DNA from: Nitrospirota bacterium
Lineage (GTDB): Bacteria > Nitrospirota > Thermodesulfovibrionia > UBA6902
Direction: 5' to 3'
NCBI GenBank assembly: GCA_016207885.1
Contig: JACQZE010000003.1
Coordinates: 421,117 to 485,116, forward strand
Length of the DNA stretch: 64,000 nucleotides
The stretch's first letter is position 1; the number at the start of each line of letters is the position of its first letter. Below are positions 5,760 through 34,259 of the stretch, in pieces. The position numbers were made by a program, and so were the translations under genes. The notes beneath the pieces were generated by a model. It saw only the letters and a program-made list of their open reading frames with translations. It ran no database searches and had not been told where the DNA came from.

Positions 5760-6762
<1,003 letters not shown>

Positions 6763-6829
6763 AAGAAGCGTTCAGCGGTCAGCACTCAGAAATGAACCGC
6801 TTTTACTGATAGCTATAAAGGAGGAAACA

Positions 6830-8257
6830 TTGAGCACAGCGATTAAAGATACACAAAAGATGATAGAGGAAGTCCTTGATGCATATCCGGAGAAATCAAA
6901 GAAGGACCGGGCAAAGCATCTCGCGGCGAACGATCCCTCGGGACAGTGCACCACTTGCCAGGTGAAGTCCAATGTTAAATCACGTCCCGGCGTCATGACC
7001 GTGCGCGGCTGTGCCTATGCAGGCGCCAAGGGCGTTGTATGGGGGCCGGTGAAAGACCAGTTAACGATCAGCCACGGCCCGGTCGGATGCGGCCAGTACT
7101 CATGGTGGTCGCGGCGCAACTACTATAACGGACAGACCGGCATCGATACCTTCGGCACCATGCATATCACCACAGACTTTCAGGAAAAGAATATCGTTTA
7201 CGGCGGCGACAAAGGCCTTGACCTTGCACTGCATGAACTCAAGGGGCTCTTCCCGCTTGCAAACGGGATCGGCATACTTTCCGAATGTCCGGTCGGCCTT
7301 ATCGGAGACGATATCGAGGCTGTGTCAAAGCGTGTGGAAAAGGAATTTAAATATCCGATCGTTCCGGTGCGGTGCGAGGGTTTCAGGGGAGTGAGCCAGT
7401 CCCTCGGCCATCATATCGCAAACGATACCATCAAGGATTATGTGCTTGGCAAGGGCAAGCTTGAAACCTCAACGCCCTATGATGTAGCCCTCATCGGGGA
7501 CTATAACATCGGCGGCGACGCATGGGCCTCGCGCAAAATTCTCGAAGAGATGGGCCTTCGCGTGATCTCGCAGTACACGGGAGATGCAACGATCAACGAG
7601 ATCGGCATCGCGACCAAGGCGAAGCTGAACCTGATCCACTGTTACCGGTCAATGAACTACATCTGCCGGCACATGGAGGAGGAGTACGGCATTCCCTGGA
7701 TGGAGTTTAATTTCTTCGGCCCTACAAAGACCTATGACAGCATCAGGAAGATTGCGGCGAAGTTCGACGAAACGATACAGCAGAAGGCGGAAGCGGTCAT
7801 CGCAAAGTACAAGCCGGTCATGGACAAGATCATTGAACAGTACAGGGCAAAGCTCGAAGGCAAGAAGGTGATGCTCTACGTTGGCGGCCTTCGTCCGCGC
7901 CACACTATCGGCGCTTACGAGGACCTCGGCATGGAAGTGGTTGCTTCAGGATACGAGTTCGGCCACAGCGACGATTATAAGCGCACCTATCCTGAGATGA
8001 AGGAAGGGGCTGTGATCATGGATGACGCTACTTTATATGAACTGGAAGAGTTCACTCGCAGGCTGAAGCCGGACATGGTCGGCTCGGGAATCAAGGAAAA
8101 ATATTCTTACCACAAACTCGGAGTGCCGTTCCGGCAGATGCATTCATGGGACTATTCCGGCCCCTACCACGGCTTTGACGGCTTCCCGGTATTTGCTCGT
8201 GACATGGACATGACGGTAAACAGCCCCACATGGGATTTGATACGGAGGAAAAGATGA
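6830..8257 (+). CDS. nifD: nitrogenase MoFe protein alpha chain
   Basis: TTG start after AAAGGAGGA. Hallmark segments include ...[19 protein letters not shown]...[18 protein letters not shown]... The stop overlaps the nifK start (ATGA). Confidence 0.92.
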
Positions 8258-9768
8258 GCACGATAAAGATAAAAGACCACTGCGACCTGTTTCTTGAGCC
8301 GGAGTATCAGGCCCAGTTTGAGCGCAAGAAAGAATTCGAAAACCCATGGCCTGCGGAGAAGGTGAAAGAGGTTTCGGAATGGACCAAGACTGAAGAATAT
8401 AAGGAACTTAACTTTGCAAGGCAGAACATCAAGATCAATCCTGCAAAGGCCTGTCAGCCGCTCGGCGCGGTCTTCTGCGCCTCAGGTTTTGAAGGCTCAA
8501 TGCCCTTTGTGCAGGGCGCTCAGGGCTGCGTGGCGTATTTCAGAAGCCATCTAAGCAGGCACTTTAAAGAACCCTTTGCAGCGATCTCTACATCCATGAC
8601 CGAGGATGCGGCGGTGTTCGGCGGACTGAACAACATGCTTGAAGGGCTGGAGAACACCTATGCCCTTTACAAGCCGAAGATGATCGCGGTCTCGACGACA
8701 TGCATGGCAGAGGTTATCGGCGATGATCTGAACGCCTACATAAAGACAGCGAAAGAAAAAGGCGTAATACCCCAGGACCTGCCTGTGCCGTTTGCTCACA
8801 CACCCAGCTTTGTCGGCTCGCACATCGTTGGCTATGACAATATGCTGAAGGGCATTCTGAAGACGCTTTCAGAAGGCAGGAAAGGCGAGTCGAATAATAA
8901 GGTCAATATCATTATGGGTTTCGACACCTATACCGGAAACTACCACGAGATCAAACGGCTGATGGCGATGATGGGAATTGAATTTACACTGCTGGCGGAT
9001 GTGAGCGAGACCTTTGATTCGCCGAACACAGGTGAATACAAGCTATATCCCGGCGGAACTCCGATTCCCGAAGCCATGGATGCGGTGAATGCTATAGGGA
9101 CTGTCGCGCTGCAGAAGTACTCGACCGTAAAGACAATCGAGTACATTCATAAGGAATGGGGACAGAAAGCCTTTACAGCCGCGCCGATAGGCATCAGGAA
9201 CACAGACACATTCTTTGAAGAGCTAAGCAAGCTCACGGGCAAGCCGGTTCCGGCTGCTATCGAAGCTGAGCGCGGGCGCGCGGTAGATGCCATGGTGGAT
9301 TCGCACCCTTACGTTCACGGCAAACGATTTGCCCTTGTCGGCGACCCTGACATCCTGCTTGGGATGATGAGTCTCATTATGGAGATGGGAGGCGAGCCGG
9401 TGCATATCATCTGCACCAACGGGGACAAGCACTTCGAAGCGGAGGCCAACAAACTGCTCGCGTCAAGCCCATTTGGCGTAAACGGCAAGGTATACATTGG
9501 AAAAGATATGTGGCATATGCGCTCTCTATTATTCACCGAACCGGTTGATATCCTTATCGGAAATTCCTATGCAAAGTTTCTAACACGCGACACCGGGACA
9601 CCGCTTATCAGAATAGGCTTCCCGCTCTTCGACCGGCATCATCTCCACCGGTATCCGGTAATCGGCTATCAGGGAGCGCTGAACCTTGTGACCATGATCG
9701 TCAATAATGTGCTTGATGAGATGGACAGAAAGACGATGGATACAACGAGCTTTGATGTTATCAGGTAG
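8254..9768 (+). CDS. nifK: nitrogenase MoFe protein beta chain
   Basis: [13 protein letters not shown]...[32 protein letters not shown]... The ATG at 8254 is preceded by GGAGGAA. Confidence 0.92.
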
Positions 9769-9771
9769 AGG

Positions 9772-9855
9772 ATAACTCCCCCTTCCCCCTCTTAACCTAA
9801 GAGGGGGGTAAGACTTATTCCTCCCCTTAAGATAAGGGGAGGCGAGGAGGGGTTA
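9772..9855. repeat. composite C/G-rich palindromic element, intergenic copy between nifK and nifEN
   Basis: ataactcccccttcCCCCTCTTAacctAAGAGGGGGG...CCTCCCCTTAAGATAAGGGGAGG. Its first 23 nt are identical to the copy inside nifEN at 10408. Confidence 0.8.
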
Positions 9856-9876
9856 TGAAATAAAAAAGGACCGACA

Positions 9877-12561
9877 ATGTTAACTAACATAGACAAATTA
9901 ACAGAAAGCGGCTGCTCTTCCGAAAAGCAGGACAAGGTATGCCGTTCGCGGGGCGGAGAGTCATGCGCCTTTGACGGAGCTATGATCGTACTCCAGCCTA
10001 TTGCGGATACGGCGCATATCGTCCACGGGCCGATTGCGTGCTGCGGCAACACATGGGAAGGAAGAGGCACGTTATCTTTAAATGGCAACCTGCACAGAAT
10101 GGGCTTCACAACCGACATGAATGAGATAGATATTGTCTATGGCTCTGAGGAAAAATTGTATGCGGCAATAATTAAGACATTTGAAGCTGTAAAACCAAAA
10201 GCTATTTTTGTCTATGCAACATGCGTAAGCGGTTTAATCGGCGAGGATATCGAGTCCGTATGCAAAAAAGCGGAAACCGAAATCGGAGTTCGTGTCATTC
10301 CGGTAAACGCACCGGGCTTTGTCGGCCCGAAGAATTTAGGGAATAGGATAGCAGGGGAAGTGCTGCTGGATCATGTGATAGGGACAGGGGAATTGCCTTC
10401 CAAAATCATAACTCCCCCTTCCCCCTCTTATCTTAAGAGGGGGGCAGACATCAATCTCATCGGAGAGTATAACATCGCAGGAGATTTGTGGCTTGTGGAG
10501 CCGGTGTTAAAAAAAGCTGGAATGCAAATCCTTTCACGCATCACAGGCGATTCGACTTTTGAGGAGATAACTTACGCGCATCATGCAAAGCTGAATGTAG
10601 TGGTTTGCAGCCGCGCATTGATAAATGTTGCGAAGGAGATGGAGAAGCGGTACGGCATTCCTTATATTGAAGTTTCGTTCTTTGGCAAGACAGAGATGAC
10701 AAAGGCCTTGAGGCTGATTGCAAGCAAGCTGTCATCTAATTACAAAATCCCCCTTAATCCCCCTTTTTCAAAGGGGGAGATTGGATTCCCCTCTTTGGAA
10801 AAGAGGGGTCAGGGGAGATTTTTTCAAATAGAGTCAATAATTGCAAGAGAAGAAGAACGTCTTGAAGAAAAACTGAAAATATATTCTCACCTCAAAGGCA
10901 AAAAGGCTGTTCTCTACACCGGCGGGGTGAAGAGCTGGTCATTCATCTCCGCGCTTCTTGATCTGGGAATTGAGATAGTTGCTGTCGGAACAAAGAAGAG
11001 CACATTTGAAGATGAAGAGAAGATGAAAGAGATACTTGGAGAGAATGCTCCGCTTGTTGAAGATGTGATGCCTAAGAATCTCCTGAGGCTCATGAAAGAG
11101 AAAAACGCCGACATACTTGTTGCGGGCGGGAGAAATCAGTATCTCGCGATTAAGGAAGGCTTTCCTTTTGTTGATGTGAATCAGGAGAGGCATACGGCAT
11201 ACGCGGGATATGAAGGGCTGGTGAATTTGGCTGAGCAGATAAGCAACAGCATACGGTTTTATAACCCGAAGGCAAAAGTCGGAAGCCGGAAGTCTGAAGT
11301 AAGAACGAAATCCGAAATTGTTATCAATCCGTTGAAGCACTCACAGTCCATCGGGGCTGCGATCGCGTTTCAGGGGATCAATAATTCAATTCCGGTCATT
11401 CACGGGGCGCAGGGGTGTAACTTCCTTGCAAAGGTTTTATTGACAAAGCATTTCAGAGAGCCCATCGCTCTTCAAAGCACAAAGCTCTTTACCGAGGACG
11501 TGGTGATGGGAAGTGAGGATAAGTTAACCGGCACATTGGACAGCATCATAGACAAGAATGCTCCTGATGTTATCGGAGTTCTGACGTCAGGGCTGTCAGA
11601 GGCAAAGGGAGATGATCTTGAAGGGACATTGAAGGTAAGCGGTCATAGGCCAGGGGTCAGGATTATCCATGTCCCGACTCCTGATTATGAAGGCGGGCTT
11701 GAAAGCGGTTACGCAAGGGCGGTAGAGAACATCATTGAGTCTGTGGTGCCTAAAAATATTGCTGATGCCAGACCCTTGACCGATGACCGTCTTGTCAATG
11801 TCCTTGTCGGCTCGCATCTGACCCCTGCTGATTTTACAGAGTTAAGAGAGATTATTGAAGCCTTCGGCTTAAAGCCGGTCATATTTCCAGACCTTTCCTC
11901 GCTTGACGGCAGCAGGCAGGGCTTTTCACCACTTGCCGCAGGCGGGACAGATGTTAAGGACATAAAAAGAATGGCAGAGGCATCGTTCACAATTGCTATA
12001 GGAAAAAGCATGGAACCGGGCGCGAGGTTGTTGAACGAAATATGCGGCATTGAGTATACGGTGTTTGAAAGCCTTTCCGGGCTCAGGGATGTGGAAGTCT
12101 TCATGCAGATGCTTTCATTCCTGAGCGGCAATCCGGTTCCTGCCAGATACGACAGACAGAGGAGAATCCTGATCGACGGGATGAGGGACGCGCATTTTTA
12201 TTTCGGAAACAAAAAGGTTTGCATCGCGCTTGAGCCTGATATGGCTGTTCAGACTTCAAGATGGATCAGTGAGATGGGCGCGGAGGCAACGCTTGCGGTC
12301 ATTCCTCAGAATACGGAGAGCTCAGGAAATATTATTGCGAAAGAGGTGGTTGTCTCTGACCTGTTTTCGATAGCGGGTGATTATGACCTGCTAATTTCAA
12401 ACTCACACGCTGAAGATACGGCAAAGAGGCTGGGTGTTCCATTGTATCAGGCGGGATTCCCTGTTTATAAAGTTATAGGTAACAGTTCAAGGATCACCAT
12501 TGGATACAGAGGCACGCTTGCGATGATCAATGAAGCGGCAAATCTGCTGCCAAAGGAGTGA
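9877..12561 (+). CDS. nifEN: fused NifE-NifN FeMo-cofactor biosynthesis scaffold
   Basis: 894 aa. The N-terminal half is NifE-like (CAFDGAMIVLQPIADTAHIVHGPIACCGN). The C-terminal half is NifN-like (IGAAIAFQGINNSIPVIHGAQGCNFL). It contains two in-frame repeat insertions. Confidence 0.85.
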   Translation: MLTNIDKLTESGCSSEKQDKVCRSRGGESCAFDGAMIVLQPIADTAHIVHGPIACCGNTWEGRGTLSLNGNLHRMGFTTDMNEIDIVYGSEEKLYAAIIKTFEAVKPKAIFVYATCVSGLIGEDIESVCKKAETEIGVRVIPVNAPGFVGPKNLGNRIAGEVLLDHVIGTGELPSKIITPPSPSYLKRGADINLIGEYNIAGDLWLVEPVLKKAGMQILSRITGDSTFEEITYAHHAKLNVVVCSRALINVAKEMEKRYGIPYIEVSFFGKTEMTKALRLIASKLSSNYKIPLNPPFSKGEIGFPSLEKRGQGRFFQIESIIAREEERLEEKLKIYSHLKGKKAVLYTGGVKSWSFISALLDLGIEIVAVGTKKSTFEDEEKMKEILGENAPLVEDVMPKNLLRLMKEKNADILVAGGRNQYLAIKEGFPFVDVNQERHTAYAGYEGLVNLAEQISNSIRFYNPKAKVGSRKSEVRTKSEIVINPLKHSQSIGAAIAFQGINNSIPVIHGAQGCNFLAKVLLTKHFREPIALQSTKLFTEDVVMGSEDKLTGTLDSIIDKNAPDVIGVLTSGLSEAKGDDLEGTLKVSGHRPGVRIIHVPTPDYEGGLESGYARAVENIIESVVPKNIADARPLTDDRLVNVLVGSHLTPADFTELREIIEAFGLKPVIFPDLSSLDGSRQGFSPLAAGGTDVKDIKRMAEASFTIAIGKSMEPGARLLNEICGIEYTVFESLSGLRDVEVFMQMLSFLSGNPVPARYDRQRRILIDGMRDAHFYFGNKKVCIALEPDMAVQTSRWISEMGAEATLAVIPQNTESSGNIIAKEVVVSDLFSIAGDYDLLISNSHAEDTAKRLGVPLYQAGFPVYKVIGNSSRITIGYRGTLAMINEAANLLPKE
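10408..10448. repeat. palindromic element copy inserted in-frame in nifEN
   Basis: ataactcccccttCCCCCTCTTAtctTAAGAGGGGGGcagac is translated as ITPPSPSYLKRGAD within the NifE domain. Confidence 0.8.
10746..10825. repeat. palindromic element (two hairpins) inserted in-frame in nifEN
   Basis: aatCCCCCttaatCCCCCtttttcaaaGGGGGagattggattCCCCTCTTtggaAAAGAGGGGtcaGGGGagatttttt is translated as KIPLNPPFSKGEIGFPSLEKRGQGRFFQ. Its 3' half is nearly identical to the copy at 41893. Confidence 0.8.
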
Positions 12562-12672
12562 GATGTGAGAAAGTTTAAGAAAGGCATGAAACGTTTGGCT
12601 GTATTCTTGTCAGAGGTCATTTTGGAGACAGCGCGCTATTGCGAAAACAATCAAATATTTTGAGGTGACGTC

Positions 12673-13071
12673 ATGAAAGTGGCATTTGCGACAACAGATG
12701 AAATTAATGTGGATGAACATTTCGGCAGGGCCGGGATGTTTGTCATATACGAATTAATGAAGGATGGTTACAAATTCCTTGAGACGAGAAGGTTCGCTGA
12801 AGGCAGGGATGCGGAGATAGAAGGGACAAAAGGGCTGGGACAGATCCATGATGACAGGGTTCAGGCGAAAGTCGATAAGCTTGCTGATTGCAAGATCATC
12901 TATCTCACGGAAATTGGCGGGCCTTCGGCAGCGAGGCTTGTAAAAAAGGGCATAATGCCGATAAAGATAAAAGAGGCAGCATCTATTGAGGAATCAATGA
13001 ATAGACTATTTGAGACAGTAAAAGGGTCTCCGCCGCCGTGGCTGAGAAAGGCGATGAATAATCATTCGTAG
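12673..13071 (+). CDS. nifX: dinitrogenase FeMo-cofactor-binding (NifX/NafY/NifB-C family) protein
   Basis: MKVAFATTDEINVDEHFGRAGMFVIYEL matches the N-terminal signature of the Nitro_FeMo-Co domain. RBS GAGGTGA. Confidence 0.7.
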   Translation: MKVAFATTDEINVDEHFGRAGMFVIYELMKDGYKFLETRRFAEGRDAEIEGTKGLGQIHDDRVQAKVDKLADCKIIYLTEIGGPSAARLVKKGIMPIKIKEAASIEESMNRLFETVKGSPPPWLRKAMNNHS

Positions 13072-13118
13072 AGGCAGGTTTTAAACTTGCCCCGACAATA
13101 AAAAAGGAGGATTTACAG

Positions 13119-13436
13119 ATGAAGATGATCAGGGCGTTTATAAGGCCGGAAAAAGAGCAGGAGGTAGTTTTGGCATTGGAGGGAGCCGGATTTCCGTCAC
13201 TCACAAAGATGCCGGTATTCGGAAGGGGAAAACAGAAGGGGCTTCAGGTGGGGCCGGTGCATTATGACGAACTTCCCAAAACCCTCATCATGACCGTTGT
13301 TGACACTGAAGATGTCGGGAAAGTGATCGGGATAATAGAGGGCAAGGCAAAGACCGGTTTTATCGGTGACGGGAAGATATTCGTCAGCCCGGTTGATGCT
13401 GTTTACACCGTCAGGACCGGGGAGGCTGTGCTATGA
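13119..13436 (+). CDS. nifI1: nitrogenase-associated PII-like regulator NifI1
   Basis: 105-aa PII-fold ORF (MKMIRAFIRPEK...GRGKQKG...GDGKIFVSPV), paired and overlapping (ATGA) with a longer PII-like ORF. Confidence 0.75.
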   Translation: MKMIRAFIRPEKEQEVVLALEGAGFPSLTKMPVFGRGKQKGLQVGPVHYDELPKTLIMTVVDTEDVGKVIGIIEGKAKTGFIGDGKIFVSPVDAVYTVRTGEAVL

Positions 13437-13849
13437 AGGAGATCACCGCGATCATCAGAAGGGACAAGCTCCCTGAGACCAAAAAGGCGCTTGATGAACT
13501 GGGTTATCCCGCGATGACAATTCAGAGCGTAGACGGGAGAGGAAAACAAAAAGGCGCGATGTGCGCGGAGATGGATTCTGAAATGCCCGAGAGCTTCTGC
13601 ACGGCAGCGAAATTAAAACCGACTCCATCCACATATGCGCTTGAACATACATTGCCGAAGGCCGCCCTCTATGTGCCAAAGAGGATGCTTACTGTTGTTG
13701 TGCCTGATGATGTTGTGATCAAGCTTGTGAAATCAATTATTAAGGTCAACCAGTCAGGCAAGCGCGGAGACGGAAAGATATTTGTTTCGCCCATTGAAGG
13801 CGCTGTCAGGGTAAGGACAGGAGAGATGGACGGCGAGGCGATCTCATAA
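13433..13849 (+). CDS. nifI2: nitrogenase-associated PII-like regulator NifI2 (extended T-loop)
   Basis: 138-aa PII-fold ORF with a long insertion between GRGKQKG and GDGKIFVSPI. Confidence 0.75.
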   Translation: MKEITAIIRRDKLPETKKALDELGYPAMTIQSVDGRGKQKGAMCAEMDSEMPESFCTAAKLKPTPSTYALEHTLPKAALYVPKRMLTVVVPDDVVIKLVKSIIKVNQSGKRGDGKIFVSPIEGAVRVRTGEMDGEAIS

Positions 13850-13859
13850 AGGAGGCATT

Positions 13860-14135
13860 ATGTCAATTACAGGGTACACAAGAGGCGGGCAGGAATGGAC
13901 GCCGAAGTTTATAGAATCCATAGATGCTGACAAGTGCATCGGCTGCGGACGCTGTTACAAGGCCTGCAGCCGGGATGTGCTTGAGCTGATCGAGAAGCCC
14001 TTTGAAGGTGAAGACGAGTACGGAGATGACATGGGCAACAAGGTGATGTCTGTCGCAAATCCAGGGAACTGCATCGGCTGCGAGGCTTGCTCAAAGATCT
14101 GCACAAAGAGATGCCATGTGCATACAGAGGTTTAA
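13860..14135 (+). CDS. 2x[4Fe-4S] ferredoxin
   Basis: Two clusters: CIGCGRCYKACS and CIGCEACSKICT. 91 aa. Confidence 0.75.
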   Translation: MSITGYTRGGQEWTPKFIESIDADKCIGCGRCYKACSRDVLELIEKPFEGEDEYGDDMGNKVMSVANPGNCIGCEACSKICTKRCHVHTEV

Positions 14136-14136
14136 G

Positions 14137-15033
14137 ATGAAAACAATTCTTAAGAGCAGCGACAAAAAACATATCATAAGCACGCACCCGTGTTTCTCTA
14201 AGGAGGCGCACAACAGGTTCGGAAGAATTCATCTGCCTGTAGCGCCTGCCTGCAACATTCAGTGCAAATACTGCGTAAGGAAGTATGACTGCGCCAATGA
14301 ATCAAGGCCCGGCATAACAAGCAGGGTGCTGACCCCGTATGAGGCATTGGAAAGGGTCAGGTCATTGGTTGAACGGAATGAGCGCCTGACCGTTATAGGC
14401 ATTGCAGGGCCGGGAGACCCGCTGGCAAATGACGCGACATTTGAGACATTCAGCGCGATCCACAGGGAATATCCCGAACTGACGCTCTGCGTCTCAACAA
14501 ACGGGCTGCTGCTTTCCGACAGGCTTGATGATCTTATCGGGGCAGGAGTGAGCAGCCTGACGGTTACAATAAATGCTGTCATTCCAGAGATAGCTGAAAA
14601 GATATATTCATGGGTGTCGTACAACGGCAGGCTTTATAAAGAGAGAGAAGCCGCCGAATGCCTTCTGCTGAATCAGTGGGAAGGGCTCGGAGCGGCTGTT
14701 GAGGCTGGGCTTATCGTAAAAGTTAACACGGTTTTTATCCCGGGAGTTAATGACGAAGAGATCCCATTTATCGCCAGGTTTGCCGGCCACAAGGGTGCGG
14801 AACTGATGAATATCATGCCGTTGATCCCAAAAGGTGAGTTTGAAGATCTTCATAGGCCGTCTCGTGAAGCCGTCCATGTAATGCGCGAGAAATGCGGAAA
14901 GCACATTTCGCAAATGACTCATTGCAAACAGTGCCGGGCGGATGCCTGCGGAACTCTTGATGAAGATAAAGATATGGAACTTGAAGTTCTGCATTCGAGG
15001 ATCGGGGAAGATTATTGTGAAATTATTAATTGA
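14137..15033 (+). CDS. nifB: FeMo-cofactor biosynthesis radical-SAM protein NifB (SAM domain only, no NifX-like C-terminal domain)
   Basis: PACNIQCKYCVRKYDC is the CxxxCxxC radical-SAM motif. NifB-like GPGDPLAN and TNGLLL segments are present. The start was trimmed to MKTILK. Confidence 0.8.
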   Translation: MKTILKSSDKKHIISTHPCFSKEAHNRFGRIHLPVAPACNIQCKYCVRKYDCANESRPGITSRVLTPYEALERVRSLVERNERLTVIGIAGPGDPLANDATFETFSAIHREYPELTLCVSTNGLLLSDRLDDLIGAGVSSLTVTINAVIPEIAEKIYSWVSYNGRLYKEREAAECLLLNQWEGLGAAVEAGLIVKVNTVFIPGVNDEEIPFIARFAGHKGAELMNIMPLIPKGEFEDLHRPSREAVHVMREKCGKHISQMTHCKQCRADACGTLDEDKDMELEVLHSRIGEDYCEIIN

Positions 15034-15061
15034 AAGAAGCGGTCAGCTGTCTGAAATAGAA

Positions 15062-15787
15062 ATGGAGCGTTACCGCAGGCAACTGATGCTTCACGGGTTC
15101 ACTGAAGAACATCAGCGTAAGCTGAAGGATTCAACCGCGCTGATAGCGGGCATCGGCGGCCTTGGAGGGACTGCCGCAATATATCTCGCTGTTGCCGGGA
15201 TAGGAAAGATGGTCTTCGCCCATTACGGAAATCTCACGCTCTCCAACATGAACAGGCAGATTCTGATGCGGCATGACCGGATCGGGGGAAGCAGGGTTGA
15301 GCAGGCCATGAGGACAATTGAAGAGATAAATCCCGATGTGGAGGTTGAGGCCTTTAATGAAAGGACATCAGAAGGCAATGTTGGGAATCTTCTCGACGGA
15401 ATTCAGATAGCGCTTTCTGCCAGGCCCAATTTCCGCGAGCGGAGAATCTTAAACAATGCCTGTGTCAGAAGAAATATTCCCATGGTTGAGGCTGCCATGA
15501 ACGGCATGGAGGGGTATCTTTTTAATGTAATTCCCGGAATAACTCCCTGCCTAAATTGCCTGTATCCTGAAGATAACCCGGAGTGGGAAGAGCTTGGTTT
15601 TCCCGTGCTTGGCGCAGTCTCCGGCGTACTCGGCTGCCTGATGAGCATAGAGACGATAAAGCTCCTGACAGGTTATGGGAAACCCCTGCGTTCTCAAATG
15701 CTGGTATTCAATACTATGGATCTGGATTTCAGAAAAATGAATACGAGAAGAGATATCAAGTGCATGGTATGCGGGAATTTGAATTAA
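15062..15787 (+). CDS. hesA: HesA/MoeB/ThiF-family E1-like protein
   Basis: YRRQLMLHGF...LIAGIGGLGGTAAIYLAVAGIGKM is the Rossmann segment, with a C-terminal CLNC...CMVC pair. The start is uncertain (ATG 15062 or GTG 15017). Confidence 0.65.
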   Translation: MERYRRQLMLHGFTEEHQRKLKDSTALIAGIGGLGGTAAIYLAVAGIGKMVFAHYGNLTLSNMNRQILMRHDRIGGSRVEQAMRTIEEINPDVEVEAFNERTSEGNVGNLLDGIQIALSARPNFRERRILNNACVRRNIPMVEAAMNGMEGYLFNVIPGITPCLNCLYPEDNPEWEELGFPVLGAVSGVLGCLMSIETIKLLTGYGKPLRSQMLVFNTMDLDFRKMNTRRDIKCMVCGNLN

Positions 15788-15830
15788 CCTGACAGGGATA
15801 TTAATAAAACAGCAATCACATACTACAACC

Positions 15831-15908
15831 CGTCATTCCGGCTTGTCCGGAATCTTTCTTTGTTTTAAGCAGGATAAGCCTTCGGATTCCCGACAAGCGG
15901 GAATGACA
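15831..15908. repeat. long inverted repeat (23-bp arms, GTCATTCCGG-type) between hesA and nifV
   Basis: cgtcattccggcttgtccggaat ...32 nt... attcccgacaagcgggaatgacag. Related half-sites occur at 5209-5232 and 24136-24147. Confidence 0.6.
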
Positions 15909-15920
15909 GCAATAATAAGG

Positions 15921-17069
15921 ATGAAACTCATGGCAAGAAAAAATAAAATAGAAATTCTCGACACAACCCTGCGGGAGGGAGAACAATCAAGAGGCATTCT
16001 CTTTACCACAGCGCAAAAAATAAAGCTCGCTGAAAAGCTTGACTGCTTCGGAGTGGATTTTATCGAACTGGGGCATCCGGCTGCGTCACCGTCCATACGG
16101 AAGTCTGTTGCCGTAATTTCCTCACTCGGGCTAAAGGCGCAGACAGTTGCCCATGCACGGGCAAAAAAAGAAGATATAGACATTATCCGGAGCTGTAAAA
16201 CAGCATGGGCCGGGATATTTTCCGGTATCAATTCGCTCAGCCTTGACTATCGGCTGCGCTCAGACAGAAAAACGGTTGCCGCCAATATCCTGAATGCCAT
16301 TAAGCATGCGAAAGACTGCGGCCTCAAGGTGCGTTTCACCTGCGAGGATGCTTCAAGGACTGACAGGAAGGAATTAATTGACCTGTACGCAATGGCGGTT
16401 GATGCCGGAGCAGACAGGATATGCGTTGCCGATACTGTCGGGATACTGACTCCGTCAAAGACAAAGGCGTTGATAGCTTATATTAAGAAACACGTCACAG
16501 CAGATATGCATGTCCATCTTCACAATGATTTTGGATTAGCCTCTGCCAATGCGCTTGCAGCTTATGAAGCCGGGGCGAGCGCGATAGATGTTTCTATCAA
16601 CGGCTTGGGAGAACGCTCGGGAGTGGCGGCGCTTGCCGAGGTATGTATGGCGCTCAAGCAGTTGTATACTGTGAATAACATCTGGGATCTGAAGCTGCTG
16701 CCGGAACTTTCAGCAATGGTATCAAGCTTCACAAGGTCGCCCATTGAATATTCACGGCCGATTGTAGGCAGAAATGTATTCTCCCATAAAGGCGGCATCC
16801 ACAGCGCCTCTGTTATGAAAAATCCTGAAACGTATGAACCCTTCCCTCCGGAAATCCTCGGGATAGGCCGCACTATCGTCATCAGCAGATTGATCGGCAG
16901 GCAAGGACTTGAAGGCGTATTGAAACCAGCACGACAGCTCTCACATAAGGATATCGAACATATCATCGGCAGAATCAAAAACAACGGCAATATAGAATTT
17001 ACAGACAAAGATGTAGCCCGTGTGATGAGAAACTTCAAAAGAGAAGACAATGCCCGCATATTGTCATAG
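15921..17069 (+). CDS. nifV: homocitrate synthase (HMGL-like, 2-isopropylmalate synthase family)
   Basis: ILDTTLREGEQS...GVDFIELGHPAA...HLHNDFGLA, in nif context. The start is ambiguous (ATG 15903, 15921 or 15930). Confidence 0.7.
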   Translation: MKLMARKNKIEILDTTLREGEQSRGILFTTAQKIKLAEKLDCFGVDFIELGHPAASPSIRKSVAVISSLGLKAQTVAHARAKKEDIDIIRSCKTAWAGIFSGINSLSLDYRLRSDRKTVAANILNAIKHAKDCGLKVRFTCEDASRTDRKELIDLYAMAVDAGADRICVADTVGILTPSKTKALIAYIKKHVTADMHVHLHNDFGLASANALAAYEAGASAIDVSINGLGERSGVAALAEVCMALKQLYTVNNIWDLKLLPELSAMVSSFTRSPIEYSRPIVGRNVFSHKGGIHSASVMKNPETYEPFPPEILGIGRTIVISRLIGRQGLEGVLKPARQLSHKDIEHIIGRIKNNGNIEFTDKDVARVMRNFKREDNARILS

Positions 17070-17083
17070 CCCACAAAGCTGTC

Positions 17084-17103
17084 CTACAATTACATAATTG
17101 TAG
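17084..17103. promoter_or_regulatory. 20-bp palindrome CTACAATTACATAATTGTAG after nifV, preceded by GCTGTCCTACA motif
   Basis: Near-perfect dyad symmetry. The GCTGTCCTACA motif is shared with the hairpin at 21479. Confidence 0.35.
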
Positions 17104-17146
17104 TTTGATCTAATATGAGAACCTTTTAAATGCAAAGGGTTTGATC

Positions 17147-17164
17147 CTGGCATGCTTTTAGCAT
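17147..17164 (+). promoter_or_regulatory. sigma-54 promoter nearly identical to the nifH promoter
   Basis: cTGGCATgctttTAGCAt versus nifH cTGGCATactttTAGCAt. The -12 GC lies about 15 nt before the annotated ATG. Confidence 0.55.
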
Positions 17165-17176
17165 AATAGATAAGTT

Positions 17177-18667
17177 ATGAATCCGCTTTCCAGTCAGGAA
17201 CTTTATCATGAGATCTTCGGCTCTATCCTTGATAGAACCGAAATGACCCCTTATTTATTGCTGCAGGCAACAAATTATGAGGCCGCCCTGAGACAGGCAA
17301 CCAGGATGATGGGCAACCGCGGTTTTGATACGTCAGACAGCAATGAGCTGAATGAAAGCGAGAAAAAAAGGGCGCAGCAATATATAGAGCAGGCCTATTG
17401 TTACTGTTTTGATTTTATGTTCCCGTTTTTAAAAGAACAGCTTGAAGGGCTCAAGGCTTTAAATACCAAAAATCAGTATCTGTACACTAACTCTTTGCAG
17501 GTCATAGATGAAATAGCGGCTATATTGCTTGATCCGGAGTTTAAAGAAATAGTTGCCGAAGACCCGCGGCATCTCTTTCTTCTGGCATCATCAAAAAAGT
17601 ATCCTCACGTCTTCTACGGCTACAAGGGGCTAAATATGCATGTTCCGCCCGGCTGGCAGCGCATGGCATGTTCGATCCTGAAAGTGGCGCATCTGATCAA
17701 GTCAATCGAGGAGGAGAGCCAGGATGTTAACGACTTCGCCCAGTTGGGCTTGTTCTTTGAAAGTAAGGGGCAGAGCCTTCACGACATATTTAATTATGAC
17801 TGGGAGAACCCCGGAGAACTTCCGGAAAGCGAGGCAGCTCAAAGGGCATTCGTAAAGATCTCTGCTTTTTTTCATAAACTGAAAGAATTTGTTCAATATA
17901 ATACTGAACAAAAGCGCCTGATCTTCAATAGCGGAGACGGGGTTGAAGTCGATATCGTTGAGATAAAGGCAAGGCTGAAGAGCCCGGAAAGCATGTTTAC
18001 CAAGCTGGGCAAGAATCTTGAGGGAGAGGCCTACAATATCAGAGACCTTCTGGCGATCACCTTTATACTGAAGAACAAGGATGATACTTTAAAACTCTTT
18101 CATGCGCTGCAGAAACGGGGCGTTATACTTCAGGAAAATACGATCTCACAGTCCATAACCCAGACATTATTTGATATGCCTGAAGATATGACAGACGCGG
18201 TAGGAAGCCTCATGGCATCTCTCTCTATGAGCAAAGGGAAAGATGAGCCGGATGACAAGGATGAGGTTTTGGTTAACGCAAACAATTTTTATAATGCCCT
18301 CGGGGTCAATACTGCCAATAACCCTTATTCTTCATTGGGCCATAAGAAATTCCAGTGCAAGATAAACTTCTTTGTGCCCATTCACCGGATAGCCGGAACA
18401 GGCAAGATCATTATTCCCGGCACTGCTGAATATAAAATGAGGGACCGGCTTAATTTAAAAACGGAACAGCATACACTTGCGTTAGAGCTTCGCATATCAG
18501 ACGAGAAAAGCTGGCAACGGTCGGAATACAGCGGAGAGTCTCATCACAATGCCTATAAATTCCGTCAGTTGATCTCTGTAATGAACAGGGTATTCAAAAA
18601 TATCTTTAATCTGCCGGAGAAGTCTTTTTCCCAGGTCAGAAGCGACCAGGATATACTCTTCTCATAA
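17177..18667 (+). CDS. RelA/SpoT-like nucleotidyltransferase-domain protein (possible small alarmone synthetase-like) with unknown N-terminal domain
   Basis: The C-terminal half carries an RxKxxxSxxxK motif (ARLKSPESMFTKLGKN), D-containing IRDLLAITFIL, and an ExQxR-like ALELRISDEKSWQRSE...SHHNAYKF segment. Their order matches the NT_RelA_SpoT fold. 496 aa. The start may be an internal Met. Confidence 0.55.
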   Translation: MNPLSSQELYHEIFGSILDRTEMTPYLLLQATNYEAALRQATRMMGNRGFDTSDSNELNESEKKRAQQYIEQAYCYCFDFMFPFLKEQLEGLKALNTKNQYLYTNSLQVIDEIAAILLDPEFKEIVAEDPRHLFLLASSKKYPHVFYGYKGLNMHVPPGWQRMACSILKVAHLIKSIEEESQDVNDFAQLGLFFESKGQSLHDIFNYDWENPGELPESEAAQRAFVKISAFFHKLKEFVQYNTEQKRLIFNSGDGVEVDIVEIKARLKSPESMFTKLGKNLEGEAYNIRDLLAITFILKNKDDTLKLFHALQKRGVILQENTISQSITQTLFDMPEDMTDAVGSLMASLSMSKGKDEPDDKDEVLVNANNFYNALGVNTANNPYSSLGHKKFQCKINFFVPIHRIAGTGKIIIPGTAEYKMRDRLNLKTEQHTLALELRISDEKSWQRSEYSGESHHNAYKFRQLISVMNRVFKNIFNLPEKSFSQVRSDQDILFS

Positions 18668-18778: not shown

Positions 18779-18796
18779 CTGGCACGCTTCTCGCAA
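18779..18796 (+). promoter_or_regulatory. sigma-54 promoter (TGGCAC-N5-TCGCA)
   Basis: aCTGGCACgcttcTCGCAa is a strong -24/-12 match. It shares an extended upstream block (CCTTTAAAATCA..GTGTT..AAACTGGCA) with the nifH promoter. Confidence 0.6.
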
Positions 18797-18806
18797 TAAG
18801 CTACGT

Positions 18807-18998
18807 ATGGTTTCACTAAAAAATAAGATAGAGAGCTACGAAAAGAGTTCAATAATTCATGCGCTTGTTGAATGCGACTGGGTGATGGCAAAGGCGGCGA
18901 GACAGTTAGGCATCACTGAGAGGATGATCGGTTACAAGATTAAAAAATACGGAATAAGGAGGGAGGAAGGAAAAGACAGGGTTTCAGGCAGTACATAA
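18807..18998 (+). CDS. stand-alone Fis/NtrC/NifA-type HTH (HTH_8) mini-protein, or remnant of an activator C-terminus
   Basis: IESYEKSSIIHALVECDWVMAKAARQLGITERMIGYKIKKYGI closely matches the C-terminal DNA-binding helix-turn-helix of sigma-54 activators and Fis. The ATG is about 12 nt downstream of the -12 element, so the transcript would be leaderless. Confidence 0.45.
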   Translation: MVSLKNKIESYEKSSIIHALVECDWVMAKAARQLGITERMIGYKIKKYGIRREEGKDRVSGST

Positions 18999-21469: not shown

Positions 21470-21478
21470 CAGGCGATA

Positions 21479-21521
21479 GCTGTCCTACATTTTTGTCGGA
21501 GCTACAAAAATGTAGGACAGC
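21479..21521 (+). terminator. long perfect hairpin after glnK (18-bp stem)
   Basis: GCTGTCCTACATTTTTGT cggagc TACAAAAATGTAGGACAGC, followed by ttgatttgt. Confidence 0.45.
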
Positions 21522-21557
21522 TTGATTTGTAACCCATTAACAATAAAGAGTTTTAAG

Positions 21558-24000: not shown

Positions 24001-24150
24001 TATTCCCCCTTATAAAAGCCAACAGTAGGCGCTTTAAGCGGGGGATACAGGGGGATGTTGAGATAAAACACACCCCCTAACCCCTCTTATTAGAGGGGAT
24101 GATTCCGGTCAAGCCAACAGTAGGCAAGACGAAGCCGCCGGAATGACATA
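24001..24150. repeat. composite palindromic element cluster, intergenic (GATase-glnA)
   Basis: tattCCCCCttataaaagccaacagtaggcgctttaagcGGGGGatacaGGGGGatg ... cacaCCCCCtaaCCCCTCTTATTAGAGGGGatgattccggtcaagccaacagtaggcaag...gccgccggaatgac. Confidence 0.75.
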
Positions 24151-25725: not shown

Positions 25726-28441
25726 TTAATCGTCCTTATATCTCCTGAAATTCTTTACCAGCTTTTCAAAGGTATCCGGCTTATACTTTTCAAAGTCTCC
25801 TTCATCCACAAAGACAAAATTAAACCTGCATTTTTTCTGTGATGCATTGATGTCCGCGCACCAGTTTTTCAGCCGTTCCATTTTCAAAGGCACATCAAGG
25901 TCTTCAAGGCCTTTCGTCTCCACAATATATGTTTCCTTTTCATTGGCCTTGACTATAAAGTCCGGGTAGTAATTTGAGATGCTGCCGTCGGCAGTCACAT
26001 AGTCGAGCCTGAAATGAACGGCAAGGTAGTTCTTTGCGTAAGAAATAATATCTGGGCATTGCTCCAGGAATGATGCAAAGAGGAGTTCAAGGCGGCTGTC
26101 TCCGATGATTTTATTGAAGATGCTTTTTTGAGGAATGAGAAAGCCCTGATCCTTCACAACAAACGGCCTTGTCTGCCGCAATTTAATATAGTCCCGTATC
26201 TCGGCGCTTCCTTTATCAACCACTGTAAGCTCATTTATCTTTTTCTTGAATGTCTCAATTATAGTCTTGCTTGCCTCAAGCTCAGAGAGATTGCGGATTG
26301 TGTTCAGATCGTCAATATCCGCAATCCTGTCAAACAGATGTTCGGCTATAAAGGTTTTTACCTTTCCATAAAGCACATCATAACCGCTTATCAGGCGGAG
26401 GTCTTTCATAATGACCTGTGCAAAGTAGCCGATTACGCTCCGGCAATCGGCAGCCATTGCCGAATCAAGATATGTCGTGTGCGTAATCTCACCGGTTGTT
26501 ATATCTTTAAAAACAATCTCCCTTTTCTCCTCTTCGGAAAATTGCCTGTACTCCACCTTTCTTGTGCCGAACATTGAGGGCGCAAGCTCTTCAAGATTTT
26601 TGTATTCCCTGTATATCCTTGGGGAAAGCACAGGGATTTCTATATCAAGCCCGTCAATGTCCTTTTTCCTGTTTTCATTGTCTATCTCAATAATGATCGG
26701 CGCCTTTGCAGCAGTGCCTTCACCCATCGGCTTGCGCTCAAGCTCAACGCCCTCGCTCTGGATGGACTCAACAAAATCCATAAAGGCATTGGTCCCGACA
26801 ACGCTGACATACTCTGTCGTATCAGTTCCCGGATACATCCTTCTCAATCCCCGGCCGAGCGTCTGCTCCGGCAGGATATTGCTCTTTGCTGCATACGCCC
26901 TTAAGCCGACGATGGTAGTTACGTTCCTGACATCCCAGCCTTCCTTGAGCATGAGGACCGAGACAATTGCCTTATACTGGCTTTCCATTCCGTCAATCTT
27001 GTTGGACGCCTTTCTCAGCTTTTCAAGCTCATCTTTGGACTTCTTAGAATCAGCCTCGGAGATCTCACCGTTATTGTTCGTATGAATAACAAGCACGGCG
27101 TCTTTAAATTCAGGATAAGTATTCTCAAGATGTTCTGCCACATCATCACAGTTTTTTGTGTCATCCGTCATTATGAAAAGCACAGCCTTTTTACTCATCT
27201 TCTCATGTTCGGCATATGCCTTGCGCCATTCTTCCACGCCAAGCGCAATATAGTCAGCGTATTTTTCCGTATAGCGTGAGCTTTGACGCTCCTGAAGTTT
27301 TGTCCGGCTTGCCGCATCCGGCAATACGGGATGCTTGACCACGTTCTGCGTAATTGCCTCAACAAGCGGATAATCCGAGACCGTCTGCACAAAGATCGCC
27401 CCGTTATTGTGCTTGGGAGTTGCCGTTACATCTATTTGCAGAGAGAGGAAATGGTCCTTCTGCTTCAGGCGGTTGTGGATGTCTTCAATGGATTTAAACC
27501 ACGCCAGACGGTTGTCATGGATGTGGTGAGCCTCATCATTAATGACAATAAGCTCGTCAATTTCACGGACAATGACACCGAGGTCAACCTTTGAGTCAGT
27601 GGTTTTACCCGTGGGCCTTTTACCGAGAAAGTAGTCCGTCAAATCATCATCGTCAAAGTTCGGCTCAATGTCATCTCCGGCATATACGCGATGGATATTT
27701 GTGAGAAAGATATTGCCGGTCTTTCGGATAATGGACACATCATCCTGAATATGCAAGGTCAGTTGAAAATCGTCCTGCCAATTCCTGCCCTCATAGCCAT
27801 TATCCGGCAAGAGCGGGTCATCAAAGAAAACCCGAAGCCCGTCAAAGTCAGCACGAAGACGGTCAAGGACAATAATATTAGGCGCAATGATAAGGAAGTT
27901 TGTTGACAGCTTTGAATCAGGCTCATAGAGCTTGTGGAAATAACACCATGTAACTACGAGGCTCATAACCTTTGTCTTGCCGCTTCCGGTTGCCATTTTT
28001 ATGACAAGACGAAGCCAGTCTTCATAAAACATCCCTGCGGATACCGCTCCTGATGAGTCATAACGTATCAGGTCGTATTTGTCTTTGACCTTAACAACTT
28101 CATAGAGATAAATAACCGTTTCAATAGCCTCGCGCTGGGCAAAATAATAACGAAACTCATACCCCCCTTTATTTCCCCCCTTATCAAGGGGGGATTGAGG
28201 GGGGGTAAGGAATAATGTGTTCCGTTTTGAACCACCAGTTAATCAGGGCTTTGCTTGTTTCAGTTGCGCCATCATAACCGGAATCACGCCATTGTTTAAC
28301 ATCCCTTCGTATTTTATTGACCAGCGGAGGCAGGAGTTTGCCATAACTTGATTCCCACAAAGCCTCATCAGCCGGAAACCAGCGGATATCGGGATGAAGT
28401 ATTTCATAGGAGGAATTTGGGAATGAAGGATGAATTGCCAT
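25726..28441 (-). CDS. res: type III restriction enzyme Res subunit (helicase), split by a frame change inside a palindromic-repeat insertion
   Basis: The 768-aa ORF 25726..28032 starts at Walker A (TGSGKT) and carries the DEAH box (IVINDEAHH) plus a C-terminal endonuclease region. The N-terminal 85 aa (28184..28441, ...ALINWWFKTEHIIPYPPSIPP) are in another frame. The helicase frame reads through the repeat as ...SLPPLNPPLDKGGNKGGYEF... back to a stop at 28240. Confidence 0.6.
28156..28210. repeat. palindromic element copy inside res (at the frame break)
   Basis: ataCCCCCCtttatttCCCCCCTTATCAAGGGGGGattgaGGGGGGGtaagg contains C6-7 and G6-7 homopolymers. Confidence 0.75.
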
Positions 28442-28672
28442 AGTCTTTAAATGAATTTTAGATTTAGTTTACATTTCATAACTTATTAATTTTTAAGGGC
28501 TTTCAACTTATGCTAAAGCTGTTCTAAATCAATTATAGATTTAATTAACAAGCGTCCAATACGTTACATCCCTTGTACCCACTTCAGATTTTGCGTCTAA
28601 ATAGCAACCCTCTGATTCTACAAGAAAATATCAGGGATCCTGCCTTTCTAAACCCTATCGTCTAAATAACGA

Positions 28673-30080
28673 TCAGGCCCAATATGGCACATACTTGGCA
28701 TAACGTTTTGACTTGCTATCTGGATCGTCCAGCTTTACCAGACCTTCATCAACTGCATCTGAAATAATACGTGATATTGTTTCTGCCTTGATCTCTGGCA
28801 ACTTGAAACGCTCTCGCAGGCTCTGGTTTGTCATTTTTTTGTTACTGACATACCGTAAACAACAGTGCTGATAACAAGCCCTGCTTCGCTCTTTTCTGTC
28901 CATCTCCTCAAATGCTTTGTGTGCAAACAAGATAACACTTGTATTACGCTCTCCAACGCGGAAATCAGGAGCTGGCAACTGCCATGCCTCAGCCAGCCCG
29001 ACCACTTTGTCAATGCCGCTGCTCTTTTCTTCGCATATTCCAAAACGCCGCATTAAATCGGCCAGTCGATCATTGCGAGCTTTATACTCATCAATAAAGC
29101 GGTCAGGAGGAATTAACGGTTTGCCGGGATTAGAAATCTCAATTCGATCAGAATATATTTCTACCATAACAAACGAGCCGAAATCCTCTACATCCTGATG
29201 GATGAGAGCATTTGCAACCAGTTCCCGAATAGCGAGTTCAGGATACATCCGCACATCGCTTCGAAGTGCCTGGCCAACCACTTCATTCGCGGGCAACTGG
29301 CTATTTATAAAATCGATAAGTCCCTCGAACCCGACTGCATACCCTTTAGTGCCCGGCTGATCCCGAACAGTCTCAAGTTTGTTTGAGCCACGATAAACAA
29401 TCACCCTTGGCTTTGCGTTGAAGTCCGTTGAAATCGCGCAGATCCTTGGCCAGTAAAATAGCTCCAAGATTTGTAATGTCCCAGCCATTGCTGTTTTTTA
29501 TAATAAGATGTTCGCTCTCACAACGAGCTAAGACTCCATCTCGATTAGCGGGATAAGGGAGTTTGAGCAATTCGAACAGGCTTTGTGTATCAAGAAGGCG
29601 TACAACCTTGTCAGCATCAGCGCCTTTTAAGGCAGGGCGTAAAAGGAATTCGGGCTTCCCCTCATCGAAAATCCGGCGGAGAAGGTCCTCGGTCATAGGC
29701 ACAAGGTCTTCACCCGCCCTCATGAGATATGCCCCTTCAAAGGCCAGAGCCGTTCCTGCCGGACGGGAAGGTACAATGAAAACGAGAACTCGCCCATCGG
29801 GATGAGAAACTTCTTCAATCTCTACCCTTATGCGCAGTGTTTCGGCAATACGTGCCTTGATGGCACCAAGGTCAGAAAAAGCAAGCGTTCCTACCACTCT
29901 CCGGGGCAGACGGTTTGACACTCCCAATACCAGTTGGCCGCCGCCTTCATTAGCAAGCGCTACGCAATAGCGCAACAGTTTCACTGTATCAAATTGCTGT
30001 TTGGCCTCTTTAAATTCCAGCCGCTCATGTTCTCGGGGAACGGTCAGTAATTGGTCAATGGCATCCGGTGTCCAGCTCAC
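28673..30080 (-). pseudogene. AlbA_2 (divergent AAA/Schlafen-like) + HATPase_c_4 domain protein, split into two overlapping ORFs
   Basis: ORF 29373..30080 carries the AlbA_2 N-domain (EHERLEFKE..., ...NLGAILLAKDLRDF). ORF 28673..29488 carries the ELVANALIHQD...IEISNPG HATPase_c_4 core. The frames switch within the microrepeat gaTTTCAACGgaCTTCAACGc (about 29420-29440). Confidence 0.55.
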
Positions 30081-32365: not shown

Positions 32366-32461
32366 GTGTTATGTTGGTGCAGATTCTTGGCATAGGTTTT
32401 TAGTATCTCCTGAATGATACTCGTTCCCCGATATTATATATAGATAAGCAGAAAGTTAGAA

Positions 32462-32544
32462 GCAAAAAAATGCGCGGACTTTTCAACCCGCGCACATGAT
32501 ATTCCAAGAACAGTAAATAAACTAAATCGCTACATCTCCCCTCT
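32462..32544. repeat. direct repeat copy 1 (degenerate glnB 3' end + terminator) flanking the Fic cassette
   Basis: About 85% identical over about 85 nt to 33828..33913. It contains the hairpin TGCGCGGacttttcaaCCCGCGCA preceded by A7 (an intrinsic terminator on the minus strand), and a degenerate remnant of the glnB last codons (..RGEM* versus ..RGEAAI*). Confidence 0.7.

Positions 32545-33827: not shown

Positions 33828-34259
<432 letters not shown>

Follow-up and report, generated by a model that had tools for sequence, protein, structure and literature searches.

The stretch of 64,000 nucleotides analysed here (the window; contig JACQZE010000003.1 of a Nitrospirota bacterium, positions 421,117 to 485,116) carries, directly downstream of nifV, a gene (the target gene) for a 496-residue protein predicted to have the fold of RelA/SpoT homolog (RSH) synthetases. 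We favour, with moderate confidence, the reading that this is a stand-alone chromosomal RSH-type gene which is induced by nitrogen limitation through sigma-54 and couples that condition to an alarmone-type signal. The components of this reading differ in strength: an RSH-fold pyrophosphokinase at residues ~238 to 480 is very probable, nitrogen-regulated expression, as judged from the promoter and the neighbouring genes, is rather likely, and (p)ppGpp as the product can be proposed only tentatively. A sequence-only reading of the same DNA had placed the gene within the nif cluster. The adjacency to nifV was correctly seen (the nifV stop codon lies at 17069, leaving a gap of 107 nt), but the gene is not embedded in the cluster; rather, it marks the junction of nif (5.8–17.1 kb) with an amtB-glnK-glnK-amtB-GATase-glnA cluster (18.8–25.6 kb).

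The protein belongs to a family whose sister family, TIGR04552/TIGR04562 (TIGR04552/62), has part of the same architecture. The features of the gene and its product are as follows.

17177–18667, + strand: target open reading frame (ORF) with an ATG start, encoding 496 aa, a helical N-terminal region followed by an RSH-synthetase-like domain.
17177–17557, + strand: N-terminal segment, aa 1–127, found in this family only, with invariant HEIFGS..L and NRGFD motifs; absent in TIGR04552/62.
17558–17887, + strand: helical region, aa 128–237, common with TIGR04552/62 (DPRHLFLLASS...ACSILKxxHLIKSIEE), with a family-specific insertion at ~aa 208–250.
17888–18616, + strand: RelA/SpoT-type synthetase fold, aa 238–480, a nucleotide pyrophosphokinase fold.
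17972–18004, + strand: R266-x-K268-x3-S272-x3-K276, the (near-)invariant ATP-phosphate-binding motif, aligned to KSRVKSFESIVNKL of RelP/YwaC.
18044–18046, + strand: D290, equivalent of the Mg2+-binding Asp of DxxGxR, here in DLLAITF with G changed to A and R to T.
18074–18331, + strand: enlarged helical insert, aa 300–385 (~85 residues), between core strands 2 and 3, modelled partly with low confidence.
18326–18364, + strand: aa 384–396, (Y/H)SSLGHKKFQCKI, in the place of the G-loop, with His389 apparently for Tyr, as located from the alignment and established RSH motifs.
18485–18502, + strand: E437-L-R-I-S-D, corresponding to the catalytic E-V-Q-I-R-T strand, with the Glu invariant in both families.
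18542–18559, + strand: H456-H457-x-A-Y460-K461, equivalent of the AxHxxYK helix of RSH synthetases.

The 496-aa ORF and the RelA/SpoT motifs quoted for it earlier were confirmed, the motifs following one another as ARLKSPESMFTKLGKN (aa 265–280), IRDLLAITFIL (288–298), ALELRISDEKSWQRSE (435–450) and SHHNAYKF (455–462). The AlphaFold2 model of the protein (predicted local distance difference test, pLDDT, 86.6; predicted template modelling score, pTM, 0.84) retrieved RSH synthetases as all of the top ~48 PDB matches in Foldseek, and the predicted structure resembles RelQ, RelP and Rel, which are housekeeping enzymes, more than the toxic small alarmone synthetases (toxSAS). R266, K268, S272, K276, D290 and E437, along with the helix residues H456, H457, Y460 and K461, are invariant across 41 orthologs, and K268, S272, K276, D290, E437 and Y460 across the target and sister families together, with E437 aligning in hhalign to the Glu of the sister-family EVQI. 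Thus, the RelA/SpoT domain inferred from the motifs is borne out for the C-terminal half, which has the RSH-synthetase fold and retains invariant ATP/Mg2+ catalytic residues, and the catalytic Asp and Glu whose loss had been named as the mark of a relic (D290 and E437) are kept in both families. PF04607 (RelA_SpoT) is matched at E ≤ 0.01 by 66 of 70 members of the two families, and no other family recurs among the matches. The N-terminal ~235 residues have neither a Pfam match nor a strong fold match; no convincing structural relative emerged, and a pseudo-HD domain, considered for this region, was not supported. The all-helical region of aa 1–237 is probably regulatory or substrate-selecting.

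The promoter region of the target gene, together with the loci with which it was compared, comprises the following features.

5809–5854, + strand: nifH promoter core, an A/T-rich IHF-like box and the −24/−12 element TGGCATACTTTTAGCA at 5835–5850; left copy of a 46-nt direct repeat.
5921–17069, + strand: nif cluster (nifH, nifD, nifK, nifEN fusion, nifX-like, nifI1, nifI2, ferredoxin, nifB-like radical SAM, ThiF-like, nifV).
17080–17103, + strand: candidate upstream activator site TGTCCTACAATTACA (TGT-N9-ACA), overlapping a perfect 9-nt inverted repeat, CTACAATTA/TAATTGTAG.
17122–17147, + strand: A/T-rich box CCTTTTAAATGCAAAGGGTT between the activator-like site and the −24 element, aligning with the IHF-like boxes of the nifH and HTH_8 promoters.
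17148–17163, + strand: sigma-54-type −24/−12 element TGGCATGCTTTTAGCA of the target gene, with GG at 17149–17150 and GC at 17161–17162, in agreement with the GG-N10-GC consensus (TGGCAC-N5-TTGCW), intergenic and correctly oriented.
18780–18998, + strand: third sigma-54-type promoter, TGGCACGCTTCTCGCA (18780–18795), with a 63-aa HTH_8-only gene; architecture as at the target gene.

The pattern TGGCAYN5TNGCW has 5 matches in the window, compared to 0.58 expected, a number that none of 100 shuffles reached. Three of the five are intergenic and correctly oriented, namely those of nifH (5835), the target gene (17148) and the HTH_8/amtB operon (18780). The similarity to the nifH promoter had been noted from the sequence, with a difference of two bases; the similarity holds, but the 16-mers differ at one base, and both have an unusual TAGCA −12 box. 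Furthermore, the three promoters have in common a layout that consists of a TGT-N10-AC(A) site (TGT-N9-ACA at the target gene), a TTGTAG/T motif and an A/T-rich CCTTTAAAAT(C)A box, the latter matching the IHF consensus at nifH and HTH_8. The site at 17080–17103 occupies a position equivalent to that of a perfect TGT-N10-ACA (TGTTTGTTAATTAACA) at 5767 upstream of nifH; the motif was picked post hoc, and the site is a candidate. Comparison of the 90 nt located 5′ of the −24 element, anchored on −24, with shuffled controls gave 46% identity between the target gene and nifH (z 3.7, 0 of 500 shuffles), z 3.7 between the target gene and its ortholog at locus L001, z 3.1 between the target gene and HTH_8/amtB, and z of about 6 between the L001 ortholog and HTH_8/amtB. 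Each of the three window promoters has two or more ACAAT/ATTGT half-sites, likewise a post hoc motif, on its upstream side, compared to 6% of AT-rich windows. Because this upstream architecture is common to the target gene, the L001 ortholog, nifH and HTH_8/amtB, the promoter of the target gene is, on sequence grounds, to be regarded as an ancestral possession of the gene that did not arrive with nif, and as being in one class with the promoters of nifH and the amtB operon. Of 86 orthologs, 11 have a sigma-54-type element upstream, compared to a background of 3.7%; the strong ones (in the window and at L001, L002/L003, L007, L011 and L012) all fall in the clade of the window, with or without nearby nitrogen genes. 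Collectively, the pattern statistics, the recurrence upstream of close orthologs and the upstream architecture in common with nifH uphold the sigma-54 element proposed initially.

The 63-aa HTH_8 protein consists of a Fis-type domain only and resembles the DNA-binding tail of NtrC/NifA; its L001 counterpart is located at 11611–11859. Its gene heads a porin-like/amtB/glnK/glnK/amtB/GATase/glnA cluster, an arrangement kept in L001 and about 10 other loci. The −12 GC and the ATG are ~12 nt apart, a spacing that implies an mRNA without a leader and mirrors the near-leaderless geometry at the target gene.

Genomic context was compared across 83 non-redundant loci, the neighbourhood being defined as 10 kb from the gene. 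Nitrogen genes (nif, amtB/glnK(PII)/glnA or nasA/nasB/nirBD) are found within this distance in 22–24 of the 83 loci, or in 19 of the 60 with at least 10 kb of flank, in roughly 6–8 distinct arrangements and in two phyla. The nif genes lie upstream on the same strand in the window, L006 and L008, and in L033 the gene is divergent from nifH. The HTH_8/amtB/glnK/glnA genes are located downstream in 7 loci (L001, L012, L013, L015, L030, L066 and L070), whereas L011 has them upstream and L042 and L052 have them on the opposite strand. In 9 Methylococcaceae loci, a nitrate/nitrite-assimilation cluster converges on the gene, with its first gene ending 2–445 nt away; it encodes a NasA-type molybdoenzyme with a BFD tail, a NirB-like flavoprotein, NirD (passing the NCBIfam cutoff) and NirB. 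Another molybdoenzyme (‘F1’; Nitrospirota loci L016, L048, L050, L083 and L002) was considered as a nitrate reductase and excluded from the nitrogen count, being devoid of the BFD tail and either TauE-paired or formate dehydrogenase-like. The most frequent neighbour family, a molybdoenzyme, occurs in 14 of the 83 loci; no family is common to more, and there is therefore no conserved partner gene. Canonical Rel/SpoT genes were sought in the DNA of the window and the loci, and none was present there. In a methanotroph subclade (L041, L058, L068, L076, L077, L080 and L084), two genes on the same strand immediately precede the ortholog, one for a ~1150-aa protein with no Pfam or NCBIfam match and one for an O-methyltransferase (PF01596), and may form an operon with it.

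Several observations weigh against the nitrogen-limitation reading and are considered here along with the alternatives to which they lend support. The −12 element of the target gene ends 13 nt before the ATG, so that the predicted leader is ~3 nt long, and it has no Shine–Dalgarno sequence. A terminator-like site was sought in the gap between nifV and the target gene and none was found; hence, transcription may continue from nif into the gene. The scanned ORFs of the window include no sigma-54 activator gene. Most orthologs have no sigma-54 element, including the amtB-adjacent L013, L015 and L030, in which the homologous upstream region has been kept and the −24/−12 element lost, and L006, L008 and L009 carry a common sigma-70-like motif, TTGTTATACTATAAC, in its place (the latter three also have a conserved 590-aa downstream gene). 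From these comparisons, the promoter is labile across orthologs. Finally, about 70% of the loci have no nearby nitrogen genes, the nitrogen-linked loci group together phylogenetically, and nasA converges on the gene instead of forming an operon with it.

The alternative that draws most on these points is an RSH-fold enzyme with a role unrelated to nitrogen, the adjacency to nitrogen genes resulting from inherited synteny or hitch-hiking and the sigma-54 promoter answering to another activator or signal. Indeed, about 60 of the 83 loci are without nitrogen genes within 10 kb, L002/L003 combine a strong sigma-54 element with the absence of nitrogen genes nearby, the linked loci are concentrated in one clade plus the Methylococcaceae, where nasA stands tail-to-tail with the gene, and several amtB-adjacent orthologs have lost the element. 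Nevertheless, genes of three nitrogen-acquisition pathways adjoin the gene in about 6–8 arrangements in two phyla, for which the chance expectation is a few percent (an estimate rather than a whole-genome computation), and the promoter architecture in common with nifH and the amtB operon extends beyond the core element. We therefore consider a role unrelated to nitrogen unlikely, although it is to be taken seriously.

According to a second alternative, the gene is a component of the nif cluster, NifA-dependent and dedicated to nitrogen fixation. Such a nitrogen-fixation-coregulated pyrophosphokinase was the proposal of the sequence-only reading, of which the RSH fold and the sigma-54 element stand and the nif membership and the specificity for N2 fixation do not. 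The location of the gene 107 nt past nifV with no terminator between them, a −24/−12 element one base from that of nifH down to the TAGCA box, a TGT-N9-ACA positioned where nifH has TGT-N10-ACA, and the adjacency of nif in L006, L008 and L033 are all consistent with it. However, the closest ortholog, that of L001, which is 93% identical and preceded by a homologous sigma-54 promoter, has no nif cluster at its locus. The flanks of L001 are otherwise those of the window, with genes for a cNMP-binding/Fer4 protein, HAD, PNP_UDP, a phosphoribosyltransferase and PilZ upstream, and HTH_8, porin-like, amtB, glnK, glnK, amtB, GATase and glnA downstream. Synteny between the two breaks at 5640 and about 17195, the 11.5-kb nif cluster of the window standing in for ~400 bp of L001 that contain a zinc-ribbon gene. 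The same contrast is seen between L006 and L008, with nif upstream of the gene, and their sister L009, with the same downstream genes and no nif. Conservation of the gene next to nifV had been suggested as a check; nif genes adjoin it in 4 of the 83 loci (the window, L006, L008 and L033), the family being kept in many nif-less contexts; the neighbours represent nitrogen acquisition generally (nif, amtB/glnK/glnA, nasA/nirBD) and the amtB operon has the same promoter layout. A dedicated nif function is thus improbable.

The promoters of nifH and the target gene form a 46-nt direct repeat (5809–5854 and 17122–17167; 74% identical, 11,313 nt apart) on either side of the nif cluster, and recombination between the copies could remove or introduce nif. 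In base composition, the cluster does not stand out as foreign. The post-nifV position of the gene is a matter of nif cluster presence or absence between two direct-repeat promoters and not of nif operon membership; accordingly, it provides no ground for annotating the target gene as a nif gene.

Turning to the protein, PF04607 scores 18.5 bits (E 0.0026), below the gathering cutoff of 27 bits, over profile positions 2–50 of 113, so that of the two domain checks suggested originally, the profile search stayed under the cutoff and the structure prediction gave the RSH fold. The relatives score 22.5–28.1 bits, the sole pass being the sister-family member P0192. Searches of the PDB with phmmer and with profiles returned nothing significant; the best match, RelP/YwaC (E 0.015), aligned on the RxKxxxSxxxK...D motifs. 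An hhalign comparison with a RelQ sequence agreed in motif register, was not significant and serves as a lead only. The flanks of the catalytic motifs are non-canonical (DLLAIT compared to DxxGxR and ELRIS compared to EVQIRT), and an invariant GHKKFQCK appears to replace the Tyr-containing G-loop. RSHs and the sister family have YQS(I/L)(Q/H) as the guanine-stacking motif of this loop. When the two families are aligned by hhalign, the Tyr of YQS(I/L) is placed at His389 or next to it, and the loop that precedes GHKKFQCK (residues 379–386) is modelled with low confidence (pLDDT below 50). With His apparently in place of the G-loop Tyr, GDP/GTP may not be the acceptor. A non-catalytic pseudoenzyme, for instance a nucleotide-binding sensor or scaffold that has kept the fold only, would be in line with the sub-threshold Pfam score, the altered residues beside the catalytic Asp and Glu, and the divergent G-loop. 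By contrast, the invariance of R266, K268, S272, K276, D290 and E437 in the 41 orthologs, and of most ATP/Mg2+ residues also in the sister family, which keeps canonical DRVGVR and EVQI, argues for catalysis, and the pseudoenzyme explanation is accordingly even a little less credible than a dedicated nif function.

A toxSAS of a toxin–antitoxin or anti-phage system, the effector that the sequence-only reading had entertained, is very improbable, as no neighbour family occurs in more than 14 of the 83 loci and none is both small and overlapping, there are no PADLOC matches and no homologs on plasmids or in phages, conservation among the orthologs is extreme, unlike that of fast-evolving defence genes, and the predicted structure has more in common with the housekeeping RelQ, RelP and Rel than with the toxins.

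An RSH-type enzyme induced by nitrogen limitation would operate as follows. Under nitrogen limitation, a putative sigma-54 enhancer-binding protein would activate nifH, the amtB operon and the target gene; since the promoter layout of the latter is that of nifH and the amtB operon, it is most likely the same protein that would switch on all three. The enzyme would in turn pass pyrophosphate on to an acceptor nucleotide, with ATP as the probable donor in view of the complete conservation of the donor site. GDP/GTP might serve as acceptor, yielding (p)ppGpp, or, given the altered G-loop, another compound might. The predicted outcome is the coupling of nitrogen limitation to an alarmone-type growth or metabolism signal. 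A more far-reaching version, which we regard as speculative and unlikely in its entirety, is that the protein founds an RSH subfamily so far unrecognised and acts as a synthase dedicated to a messenger of nitrogen limitation, induced by the nifH/amtB sigma-54 activator, in which the GHKKFQCK acceptor site and the helical N-domain would lead to a non-canonical product or a pyrophosphorylated non-nucleotide target, tuning growth and nitrogen assimilation in anaerobic diazotrophs and methanotrophs. Should the nitrogen-limitation reading hold, the link between nitrogen status and alarmones beyond Escherichia coli would be directly testable, and there is a cultured host (Methylobacter psychrophilus Z-0021); the target family and TIGR04552/62 would acquire their first functional hypothesis, and the RSH superfamily would be extended to an architecture with an unusual acceptor site.

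Other features of the window concern the gene clusters on either side of the target gene. The unusual nif make-up spans 9877–15787 and includes a fused nifEN (894 aa, two nitrogenase-component-1 domains), PII-like nifI1/nifI2 at 13119–13849, and a ThiF/MoeB-like gene (14942–15787) that overlaps the end of the short nifB-like radical-SAM gene and precedes nifV. The mechanically called nifH ORF (5770–6762) begins with TTG at 5770 (330 aa), and its Pfam match starts at residue 52; the sigma-54 element at 5835 and a good Shine–Dalgarno sequence point to ATG 5921 as the real start. A 37-nt G/C-palindromic repeat, ATAACTCCCCCTTCCCCCTCTTA..TAAGAGGGGGG, is present at 9772–9808, 10408–10444 and 24071–24089 (3 pattern matches compared to 0.01 expected). 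One copy is located in the nifK–nifEN spacer, a 95%-identical copy lies in frame within the nifEN coding sequence, where it is translated as IITPPSPSYLKRG, and a diverged copy is found upstream of glnA. A 46-nt segment between the two glnK-like genes (21478–21523) is inverted relative to L001 (14474–14519; 93% identity) and may be a small invertible or palindromic element. Directly past glnA, the − strand carries a restriction/defence-like island (25726–33668) with genes for a ResIII helicase (768 aa), HATPase_c_4, Schlafen AlbA_2, an N6_N4 DNA methylase (762 aa) and Fic/DOC; at this position, L001 has a different restriction-modification set (Vsr, NgoFVII-like, DNA methylase). The gene for glutamine synthetase adenylyltransferase, glnE (34111–37110; 999 aa), is located 8.5 kb downstream of glnA and extends the nitrogen-regulatory neighbourhood.

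The target protein is matched by ~680 database proteins, nearly all of 495–500 aa and with 63–93% full-length identity, from two phyla. A search of 1.8 billion representatives yielded essentially one full-length cluster at 50% identity and a few distant relatives at 28–36%. The carriers are Thermodesulfovibrionia/Dissulfurispiraceae (Nitrospirota) as well as Methylococcaceae, the latter at ~64% identity and with the cultured M. psychrophilus Z-0021 (L061) among them. The Methylococcaceae group as one nested clade in a neighbour-joining tree, and horizontal transfer on a single occasion is implied. TIGR04552/TIGR04562 is the closest sequence family (NCBIfam match with E 3.6e-24), and JGI labels the orthologs with these names. 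Nevertheless, the scores remain below both cutoffs (85.7 bits compared to 125 for TIGR04552 and 83.1 compared to 140 for TIGR04562) and cover profile positions ~130–352 only. The hhalign comparison of the families gave 96% probability (E 4.7e-9), aligning target residues 128–481 with sister residues 98–414. Thus, the target family is a divergent family of the RSH superfamily and a sister of TIGR04552/62; the target protein falls short of the Pfam and NCBIfam cutoffs and has the predicted fold and the catalytic residues of the superfamily. Target and sister families together comprise more than 2,000 database proteins. We found no characterisation of the target family or TIGR04552/62 in the literature and no mention of them in RSH classifications; TIGR04552/62 is likewise uncharacterised (bioRxiv 10.64898/2026.08.28.747804; PMC9888234).

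Compared with known systems, the protein is closest to TIGR04552/TIGR04562 of Bacteriovoracaceae and Myxococcales (e.g., MXAN_4858), with which it shares the helical region and the RSH-like domain. It differs in taxonomic distribution, in an extra 127-aa N-terminus and an insertion, and in its motifs, which are modified in the target family, whereas TIGR04552/62 keep canonical DRVGVRF, YQSIQF and YPYEVQIVD. Identity to RelQ (SAS1/YjbM) and RelP (SAS2/YwaC) is only ~10–16%; unlike these enzymes of ~210 aa, the 496-aa target protein has a ~235-aa helical N-terminal extension, a ~85-aa insert, an altered G-loop and altered EVQIRT flanks. The toxSAS enzymes (CapRel, FaRel/FaRel2, PhRel and Tas1) have the same superfamily fold as the target protein, and some use non-guanine acceptors such as ATP or the tRNA 3′-CCA end (PMC7229694, PMC11559606). 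With respect to regulation, the precedent is that of E. coli, in which NtrC and sigma-54 activate relA during nitrogen starvation (PMC4066584). The analogy is functional: in E. coli, an alarmone synthetase gene has a sigma-54 promoter that the nitrogen regulator activates, and nitrogen starvation is thereby coupled to (p)ppGpp (PMC4066584); a comparable control is predicted for the target gene. However, RelA of E. coli is a ribosome-dependent multidomain long RSH, whereas the target protein would be a separate, dedicated enzyme with a predicted nitrogen response and a putative alarmone-type product.

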